Shown: positions 56,234 to 57,358 of the stretch, in pieces
How positions within the stretch are numbered: the stretch's first letter is position 1
Layout of the letters: each line of letters starts with the position of its first letter
DNA from: a virus
DNA length: 64,000 nt
IMG/VR virus record: IMGVR_UViG_3300047160_007939
Span: 1-64,000 of that record
Strand: one strand, 5' to 3'
Notes under the pieces: generated by a model
The model's input: the letters and a program-made list of their open reading frames with translations, nothing else
Databases searched by the model: none
Told to the model about the DNA's origin: nothing
Position numbers and translations under genes: made by a program

Positions 56234-56935
56234 TCAAGCGTCGAGCACCGCGTCTATCGCGGCCAGCAGGTCATCGTAGCGGCCCGCCGAAGCCAGTCGG
56301 CTGCCGTCCGCGAAGTCGTAGACAAAGGTATCCCGATTGGCTTCCCGCAGCGCGCCGCGCGCTGCCGTCAGGTGCTCGCGCAGAACGTCGTGGCTGGGCC
56401 AGCGGGTTGAGAGCGTCGGCCCGCTCCCCCACGGGATGCGCTCACCGGGCGGCACGAGGTCGAAGCTCTGGCTCTCCACCACACACTCGAAGCTGCCGTT
56501 ATGCCAGCCACGGGTCTGACGGTTCACCACGATCAGGTCTTCGGGCATCGCCGACGCCACCTCGCAGCCCGTCTCCGGCCCACGTAGAGATACCTGGAAC
56601 CCGGTTCGCGCGTGTAGGAACAGCTCGGGACTGAAGGCCACGATCCGCCACGGCTGCGGGTAGTTGGTCCAGTTGTGGGTCCAGTAAAGCGCGCCCGCTT
56701 CCATCCCATCCGGCAGCGGCCTACTGCCGAGATTGATCGGCTCTTCCCACGTCTTTCGCAGGGCAAGCCGGAACTCTTCGAGCTGCTCGGGTGTCCACGT
56801 TGCGCTTTTCAGCGTCAACACGCCCAGCGGCGGCACAGCCGGCCTGCCGGCCCGATGGATGCCGAGATAGGCCAGGGGCGCTGTCAGCACGCCCAGAATG
56901 GCTCCCAGCACACTTCTACGGTTGGTCTGTTCCAT
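56234..56935 (-). CDS. hypothetical protein with twin-arginine-like N-terminus
   Basis: MEQTNRRSVLGAILGVLTAPLAYLG; start abuts 3' end of repeat array (alternative GTG at 56974). Confidence 0.5.
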   Translation of the reverse strand: MEQTNRRSVLGAILGVLTAPLAYLGIHRAGRPAVPPLGVLTLKSATWTPEQLEEFRLALRKTWEEPINLGSRPLPDGMEAGALYWTHNWTNYPQPWRIVAFSPELFLHARTGFQVSLRGPETGCEVASAMPEDLIVVNRQTRGWHNGSFECVVESQSFDLVPPGERIPWGSGPTLSTRWPSHDVLREHLTAARGALREANRDTFVYDFADGSRLASAGRYDDLLAAIDAVLDA

Positions 56936-57358
56936 CGCTCTATACTCTCGGTTCTCTCGCGCGAAACGGCTCACTCCTACTCGTCGGTTCTCTTGACGAT
57001 TGCGGCTCCGCTCCTACGGCTCGGTTCACTCCCAATGGACGGCTCGCTCCCAATGGACGGCTCGCTCCCAATGGACGGCTCTCTCCAGTACCTCGGCTCG
57101 CTCACGCGGCCCGGTTCTCTCTCTCCGCAGACGGCTCGCTCTCGATCTTCGGTTCTCTAGTACGGGTCGGCTCGCTGCGCTCATTCGGTTCTCACGCGCC
57201 ATTCGGCTCCGCTAGGCTCTCTCGGTTCTCTCACCCCCACTGGCTCGCGCATAAGGTGCGGTTCTCTCCACCGACACCGGCTTGCTCACGACGTTCGGTT
57301 CCCTCCACTTCAGCGGCTCGCTTCTTCCACGCGGTTCACTCTTTAGCAACGGCTCACA
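56931..57358 (-). repeat. TIGR-like dual-repeat guide array (~11 x 36-nt units)
   Basis: 23 repeats alternating CGGTTCTCT / CGGCTCGCT (+ strand) separated by mostly unique 9-nt spacers. Confidence 0.85.

Follow-up and report, generated by a model that had tools for sequence, protein, structure and literature searches.

In dual-repeat TIGR-TasA systems (Faure et al. 2025, Science; PMC12045711, accessible text), the arrays of tandem interspaced guide RNAs (TIGR) consist of two alternating repeats of 9-10 nucleotides (nt) and spacers of about 9 nt, which together form a unit of 36 nt. The edge and loop repeats have box motifs in common, truncated edge repeats stand at both ends of an array, and the effector is a single nuclease-less Nop-domain protein in a phage setting. 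Here we describe an array that is alike in all these respects, A1, on the minus strand of the first 64 kb (the window, positions 1 to 64,000) of IMG/VR virus record IMGVR_UViG_3300047160_007939. The complete record is a soil phage sequence of 119,514 bp with 97-bp direct terminal repeats, a G+C content of 64.5% and a CheckV completeness estimate of 77%. We regard A1 as a genuine TIGR array that is served in trans by a TasA protein of the same phage genome and works by the mechanism proposed below, and we put the probability of this reading at roughly 0.88. The block is a further member of the TIGR-Tas family described in 2025 and not an orphan; what is unusual is the dispersed, operon-embedded and partly intragenic layout of its arrays.

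Comparison with Described Systems

The repeats of this phage carry AG...CCG boxes, in contrast to the UG...CCA boxes reported for TasR arrays (PMC12045711). Also unlike the systems in the accessible text of that report, there is no terminator after the array, and seven arrays are spread over 24 kb, where they fill gaps between unrelated genes and, in two cases, lie in frame inside genes other than tas. SpTasH of Salicola phage CGphi29 (PDB 9W03, 9W04, 21KL; PMC13421893, accessible text) has the same coiled-coil plus Nop fold as that predicted for the tas protein encoded here, and its Tyr/His processing pair, seven residues apart, aligns with Y352/H359 of the latter; the variable part of the SpTIGR spacer is about 8 nt long, as here (PMC12045711). 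The tas protein differs from SpTasH in that it has no HNH domain and has an insertion of about 75 residues in its Nop region (approximately amino acids (aa) 160-235). Intragenic tigRNAs have been described as in-frame arrays within coding sequence, in disordered linkers (10.64898/2026.09.09.750476, accessible text), which is the situation found here. However, the intragenic arrays of that report are described only in tas and mostly belong to stem-loop systems, whereas those of this phage are of the dual-repeat type and lie in the genes of a primase and an XRE regulator. IS110-family bridge-RNA recombinases (IS621, ISCro4) have a distantly related RNA-binding domain in common with the tas protein, but the latter has neither a DEDD/RuvC domain nor a serine recombinase tail, and the guides are encoded here in tandem arrays rather than in one bridge RNA. 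Dispersed, scattered or multiple arrays are not mentioned under those words in the accessible text of PMC12045711 or 10.64898/2026.09.09.750476, although the supplementary locus lists of these reports may already include this contig or its dispersed arrays.

Structure of Array A1

56935-57358, minus strand: TIGR array A1, about 11.8 units of 36 nt, the largest of the seven arrays
57022-57084, minus strand: irregular stretch in A1, where a block of 18 nt (one spacer and one edge repeat) is present about three times, next to the hybrid repeat AGAGAGCCG

On the minus strand, A1 is built from two 9-nt repeats, AGCGAGCCG and AGAGAACCG, that alternate at one per 18 nt; read on the plus strand, the alternation is between CGGTTCTCT and CGGCTCGCT, the equivalents of AGAGAACCG and AGCGAGCCG, respectively. 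Both repeats open with AG and close with CCG. In AGCGAGCCG one C-G pair can form internally and variants of 10 nt are tolerated, and AGAGAACCG has an A-rich middle and a constant length. Given the truncated ends, the A-rich loop, the extra edge pair and the common boxes, all as in PMC12045711, we use the name edge repeat for AGCGAGCCG and loop repeat for AGAGAACCG. The paired-repeat pattern CGGYTCKCT-N9-CGGYTCKCT (at most 1 mismatch) was matched 24 times in the window, each time on the plus strand, as against 0.00 times in 100 dinucleotide-preserving shuffles. A preliminary description of this DNA, made from the letters alone, had counted 23 repeats, and CGGYTY anchors do occur 23 times on the plus strand from 56949 to 57358, in most cases at a distance of 18 nt. 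The anchor at 57017 lies within a spacer, and a degenerate repeat near 57241 escaped the anchor search.

A1 opens with an edge repeat that is 5'-truncated (..GAGCCG) and overlaps the TGA stop of open reading frame (ORF) 57354-60617, the probable terL gene. At its other end stands the truncated edge repeat AGCGA (56939-56935), the final A of which is also the A of the ATG of the next gene. Over regular half units (32 and 27 of them), the repeat positions are near-invariant, and no information is contained in spacer positions 1-8 (0.02-0.33 bits). Because position 9 is G in 27/32 and 20/27 half units (~80%), the variable part of a spacer comes to about 8 nt. No systematic likeness or complementarity was seen between spacers A and B within units, where the means were 2.2 and 2.1 of 8, compared with 2.05 and 1.99 between units.

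The alternation of two 9-mers with a 36-nt period was recognized correctly in the preliminary description, but its statement that each spacer is different does not hold, as the spacer CCCAATGGA (plus strand) is found three times consecutively at 57031-57084, where the repeat alternation is interrupted. The tandem block to which these copies belong (57022-57084; period 18, 3.2 copies, 97% matches) looks like a recent slippage duplication. This triplicated block may be a trace of array growth by slippage followed by divergence. The length irregularities reported earlier are real: 10-nt edge-repeat variants, AGCGGAGCCG, occur at 57003 and 57204, and steps of 20 and 19 nt occur at 57112 and 57259, respectively. 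A CRISPR array was considered and ruled out, since A1 has two repeats of 9-10 nt and spacers of 8-9 nt, as opposed to a single repeat of 25-36 nt. An Rfam search of 56000-62500 returned nothing relevant.

The TasA Effector

66168-67334 of the genome, minus strand: tas, 388 aa, between arrays A4 and A5

The tas gene was first found through the ORFs that adjoin the sister arrays of A1, and then by NCBIfam. Its product matches NF052498 (TIGR_Tas_endo, "TIGR-Tas system RNA-guided endonuclease") with 157.9 bits, against a cut-off of 100, and this was the single match to the family over the whole genome (genome 66318-67178). The preliminary description had seen no effector in the 64 kb, and indeed whole-genome searches with Pfam Nop and NF052498 gave this one match, outside the window; the effector went unseen because tas starts 2.2 kb past the window end. 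The arrays had accordingly been called dispersed or orphan, acting in trans. Dispersed they are, but they are not orphan, because TasA is encoded on the same genome and flanked by A4 and A5. The profile or structure search for a Nop/Tas protein that had been suggested earlier therefore has a positive outcome, by family match as well as by fold, and the phage does not lack a Nop-domain protein.

Among Pfam families the tas protein matched only Transposase_20 (E = 2.5e-4), and it matched PHROG 4285 at E = 1.4e-31. A profile of 55 homologues reached TaTasR (9MTY) at E = 3e-23, SpTasH at 2.6e-10 and IS621 at 1.7e-5. The AlphaFold model had a predicted confidence (pLDDT) of 91.9 and contained no strand of three or more residues. 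When the model was compared with the PDB by Foldseek, the top 10 matches were all TasH/TasR chains with a probability of 1.00, followed by IS110-family recombinases. An identity as an IS110 transposase was rejected, since NF033542 scored 23.4 bits against a cut-off of 140 and matched residues 98-165 only.

Y352 and H359 of the tas protein align with Y289 and H296 of SpTasH, the reported catalysts of pre-tigRNA cutting (PMC13421893), and the Tyr/His pair is given as a mark of dual-repeat systems in the accessible text of 10.64898/2026.09.09.750476. The histidine was conserved in 55/55 aligned homologues, and the tyrosine column held Y in 44 and F in 11. Alignments with TasR and TasH begin at residues 123 and 106 of these proteins, respectively, past their nuclease domains, and no HNH or RuvC nuclease domain was found in the tas protein by Pfam, in the model or in the alignments. 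Since it is without a nuclease domain, we assign the protein to the TasA type.

Arrangement of the Arrays in the Phage Genome

A whole-genome scan for arrays with the same repeats found seven, all in one orientation, with about 43.8 units over 24 kb. In addition to A1, these are:

44715-44827, minus strand: array A0, about 3.1 units, in the window
61193-61376, minus strand: array A2, about 5.1 units, in the window
64440-64663, minus strand: array A3, about 6.2 units, outside the window
66027-66181, minus strand: array A4, about 4.3 units, outside the window
67388-67567, minus strand: array A5, about 5.0 units, outside the window
68377-68676, minus strand: array A6, about 8.3 units, outside the window

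Parsing of the seven arrays yielded 35 fully regular units (70 spacers), and, of the 30 perfect loop repeats that have the orientation of the arrays, 29 fall within them. Array starts are 5'-truncated (..GAGCCG), and 5/7 arrays end in AGCG(A). The G+C content of the spacers is 52.9%, compared with 64.5% for the genome. A low spacer G+C was also observed in six related loci (L002, L003, L004, L006, L007 and L010; 47-54% vs. 58-66%).

The minus-strand cluster begins with a 142-aa ORF, followed by A6, an N6/N4 methyltransferase gene, A5, tas, A4 and a second methyltransferase gene, and continues with a 114-aa ORF, A3, a terS-like gene, two ORFs, the XRE regulator gene (containing A2), terL and A1. 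The tas gene thus stands between two DNA methyltransferase genes (genome 65373-66119 and 67536-68444), with an array separating each from tas, and the farthest array is 21.3 kb away from it. No terminator-like site was found 3' of any of the seven arrays on the minus strand, and after A1 the next gene starts immediately; in published TIGR arrays, a rho-independent terminator at the end is typical but not universal (PMC12045711). With neither promoter-like nor terminator-like sites detected at the arrays, co-transcription with neighboring genes would be the simplest reading.

Two of the arrays are intragenic:

44042-45097, minus strand: primase gene, holding A0 between a Zn ribbon (aa 14-58) and a DUF7146/Toprim region (aa 127-315)
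60775-62214, minus strand: XRE regulator ORF with three XRE-type helix-turn-helix (HTH) domains, directly upstream of terL, holding A2

A0 lies in frame within the primase linker, where its approximately 3 units are translated as SEP/REP, and A2 lies in frame after the three HTH domains, where its approximately 5 units are translated as ERA/ERT. Because A0 and A2 are read in different frames, the conserved unit is the nucleotide sequence.

Arrays in Related Phages and Strains

For comparison, this Tas protein was used to fetch 10 loci from viral and metagenome contigs, and 8/10 of them had arrays of the same grammar; a motif scan placed 31/31 array blocks on the tas strand. In L007, L008 and L010, CCA ends both repeats, i.e., the box motifs change together. 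L006, whose Tas is 82% identical, has kept the order array, methyltransferase, array, tas, with DNA identities of 83% (650/781) for the methyltransferase gene and 82% (967/1176) for tas; its arrays have only the repeats in common with those of this phage, and the number of units differs. None of the variable 8-nt parts of the 70 parsed spacers was found among the spacers of 8 related loci. Array grammar, Tas protein and relatives therefore all agree with the TIGR architecture that had been proposed from the letters of A1.

Spacer turnover, for which a comparison of relatives had been suggested, is also apparent between two contigs of another phage, L003 and L004. Their terL genes are 99% identical in protein and 90.9% in DNA (1399/1539), and their terL-adjoining arrays have 2 exact spacers in common, of 30 distinct spacers in L003 and 33 in L004; over the whole loci, 16 spacers are common, of 118 and 124. 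Neither of the outcomes on spacers that the preliminary description had named as refuting, identity in relatives or conservation at the amino-acid level alone, was observed. L003 has long arrays directly before and after terL (8135-8870 and 10570-11004), and the array of L004 is at 16465-17161. The terL of L003 belongs to a different PHROG family and has no significant similarity to that of the present phage (best E = 0.092).

The phage itself is present in 24 or more soil metagenome runs. A1 is covered, with one spacer base change (57075, in the triplicated stretch) and no gaps, by contigs of four other soil DNA runs, and one of the contigs spans 56692-58066; near-identical strains thus carry the same A1. 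An apparent 102-nt skip in a soil contig was discounted. Its shorter side was 28 letters, and we take it as cross-laying between repeats.

Proposed Mechanism and Alternative Explanations

On the reading favored here, transcripts of A1 would run along the minus strand and would probably arise as read-through from terL. TasA dimers, the product of a gene that lies 8.8 kb upstream on the same strand, would bind the AG...CCG boxes that AGCGAGCCG (edge) and AGAGAACCG (loop) have in common. Tyr352/His359 would then cut within each edge repeat and release 36-nt tigRNAs made up, in order, of half an edge repeat, spacer A, the loop repeat, spacer B and half an edge repeat. According to the accessible text of 10.64898/2026.08.11.744272, each of the two spacers pairs with a different strand of a single, continuous unwound region. 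In this phage, one spacer of ~8-9 nt would be expected to pair with one strand of a continuous DNA site of ~18 bp and the other spacer with the opposite strand. TasA proteins have been described as binding DNA under RNA guidance and repressing transcription without cutting (10.64898/2026.09.09.750476). Because the TasA of this phage has no nuclease domain, its complex would be expected to bind and block, i.e., to repress transcription rather than to cut.

Several observations count against this reading. A1 lies 8.8 kb and eight ORFs away from tas and is the second most distant array, and among 60 related loci the 36-nt arrays, detected in 32, were mostly within ~1 kb of tas. The 36-nt-period detector was crude and did not check orientation, and non-detection (28/60 loci) is no evidence of absence; arrays more than 2.5 kb from tas were found in this survey only in L003, L004 and L005 (one phage lineage), L025 and L043. 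Neither a sigma-70-like promoter nor an intrinsic terminator was found at A1, where the promoter scan is weak evidence because the host promoter type may differ. Pfam Nop (PF01798) found nothing in the whole genome, and the 24 listed runs in which the stretch occurs include no RNA run. The spacer pairs, which the preliminary description had proposed to search against the phage itself, had no site with two or fewer mismatches in the 119.5-kb genome in either spacer order or on either strand, and there were 6 sites with 3 mismatches, compared with a mean of 12.0 with mispaired spacers. As no self-match rises above the mispaired control, the phage apparently does not target itself; in large collections, we estimate that an 18-mer would find chance matches, and the same is stated for short spacers in 10.64898/2026.09.09.750476. 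Lastly, A1 has odd units: some spacers are 10 or 11 nt long, one repeat is a hybrid and others are degenerate, and there is the triplicated block. Some units possibly give no working guides.

The odd units, a degenerate edge repeat among them, would also be expected if A1 were a decaying or redundant copy of the tas-adjacent arrays, TIGR by descent and with few or no working guides, and the distance from tas and the number of perfect repeats (no more than 6 loop and 6 edge repeats, out of about 12 of either kind) are in keeping with this. We nevertheless hold decay to be improbable. The share of perfect repeats is no worse in A1 than in arrays beside tas (A6, 5 and 3 in about 8 units; A4, 4 and 2 in about 4 units), proper truncated-edge boundaries are kept at both ends, A1 is near-unchanged in the four other soil runs, and in a phage lineage that is unrelated, long regular arrays have likewise been kept on either side of its terL. 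It is less probable still, and by a good measure, that the repeats act as DNA, as iteron-like sites for a phage protein such as a small terminase (pac-like) or an HTH regulator, with no RNA precursor. Such sites could account for arrays that adjoin terL and the terS-like gene and, in a second lineage, lie on both sides of terL, as well as for the lack of an RNA run. They would not account for repeats that flank tas and recur beside tas homologues in otherwise unrelated genomes (32/60 loci), for the strand bias of the blocks (31/31 on the tas strand, 10 loci) or for box motifs that change jointly in both repeats. In addition, the truncated-edge boundaries and the 36-nt unit match the published RNA processing pattern, and one array lies inside the primase gene, distant from packaging genes. 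That A1 encodes a repetitive peptide, with SEP/REP or ERA/ERT hexapeptides and protein as the conserved unit, can practically be dismissed, even though A0 and A2, two of its sister arrays, form open, in-frame parts of real genes. As the preliminary description had noted, A1 is not a coding repeat: its three minus-strand frames have 3, 7 and 5 stops and the unit length varies, A3-A6 have stops in all three minus-strand frames, and the same nucleotides are read in different frames in A0 and A2. One plus-strand frame is open across A1 (ORF 56791-57447), but it fails the codon-position G+C filter that real genes pass.

If A1 and its sister arrays are guide arrays served by TasA, they might in addition act as a Tas-dependent switch on the expression of packaging, replication and regulator genes, beyond guide storage, which we think doubtful but conceivable. 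The arrays sit at the terL stop, at the terS-like start, around tas and the two methyltransferase genes, and inside the primase and regulator genes. Since they are built into the minus-strand gene cluster, and neither promoters nor terminators belonging to the arrays were detected, Tas-catalyzed cutting at every edge repeat would also cut those phage mRNAs. That a second, unrelated lineage brackets its terL with arrays hints that the placement is perhaps selected. The natural roles and targets of TIGR-Tas, above all of phage TasA, are still open in the accessible text of PMC12045711 and 10.64898/2026.09.09.750476. A phage with one TasA and ~44 guide units, some of them in essential genes, is a convenient case for the TasA target question, and it also suits the questions whether arrays far from tas are usable in trans and whether guide processing also cuts array-bearing mRNAs.

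Neighboring Genes

57354-60617, minus strand: probable terL, 1087 aa, stop codon inside the first A1 repeat
56234-56935, minus strand: gene that follows A1 directly, encoding 233 aa if read from its ATG at 56935; it matched no family

ORF 57354-60617 probably encodes the terminase large subunit, as suggested by a match to PHROG 17415 (E = 5.4e-6), a P-loop and the neighboring terS-like gene. The PHROG match is weak, the fold model is too poor for use (pLDDT 42.5), and there was no match in a PDB sequence search of terL or in a Pfam search of a terL homologue, so the label stays "probable." Two scans of viral contigs returned no terL relatives; a protein search gave homologues with 84% and 57% identity, the latter encoded on a 116.6-kb contig. 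The P-loop is interrupted by an intein (~59300-60300), with GKGSGKD in the homologues corresponding to GKGC...HANSGKD here. The translation of the middle of the insert is like that of out-of-frame high-G+C sequence, and a 245-aa ORF lies on the opposite strand at 59369-60106. Elsewhere in the window, a 100-aa ORF on the minus strand (43721-44023) matches Pfam LEA_5, a family of small hydrophilic plant seed proteins, at E = 2.8e-10 (41 bits, cut-off 40), which is odd for a soil phage.

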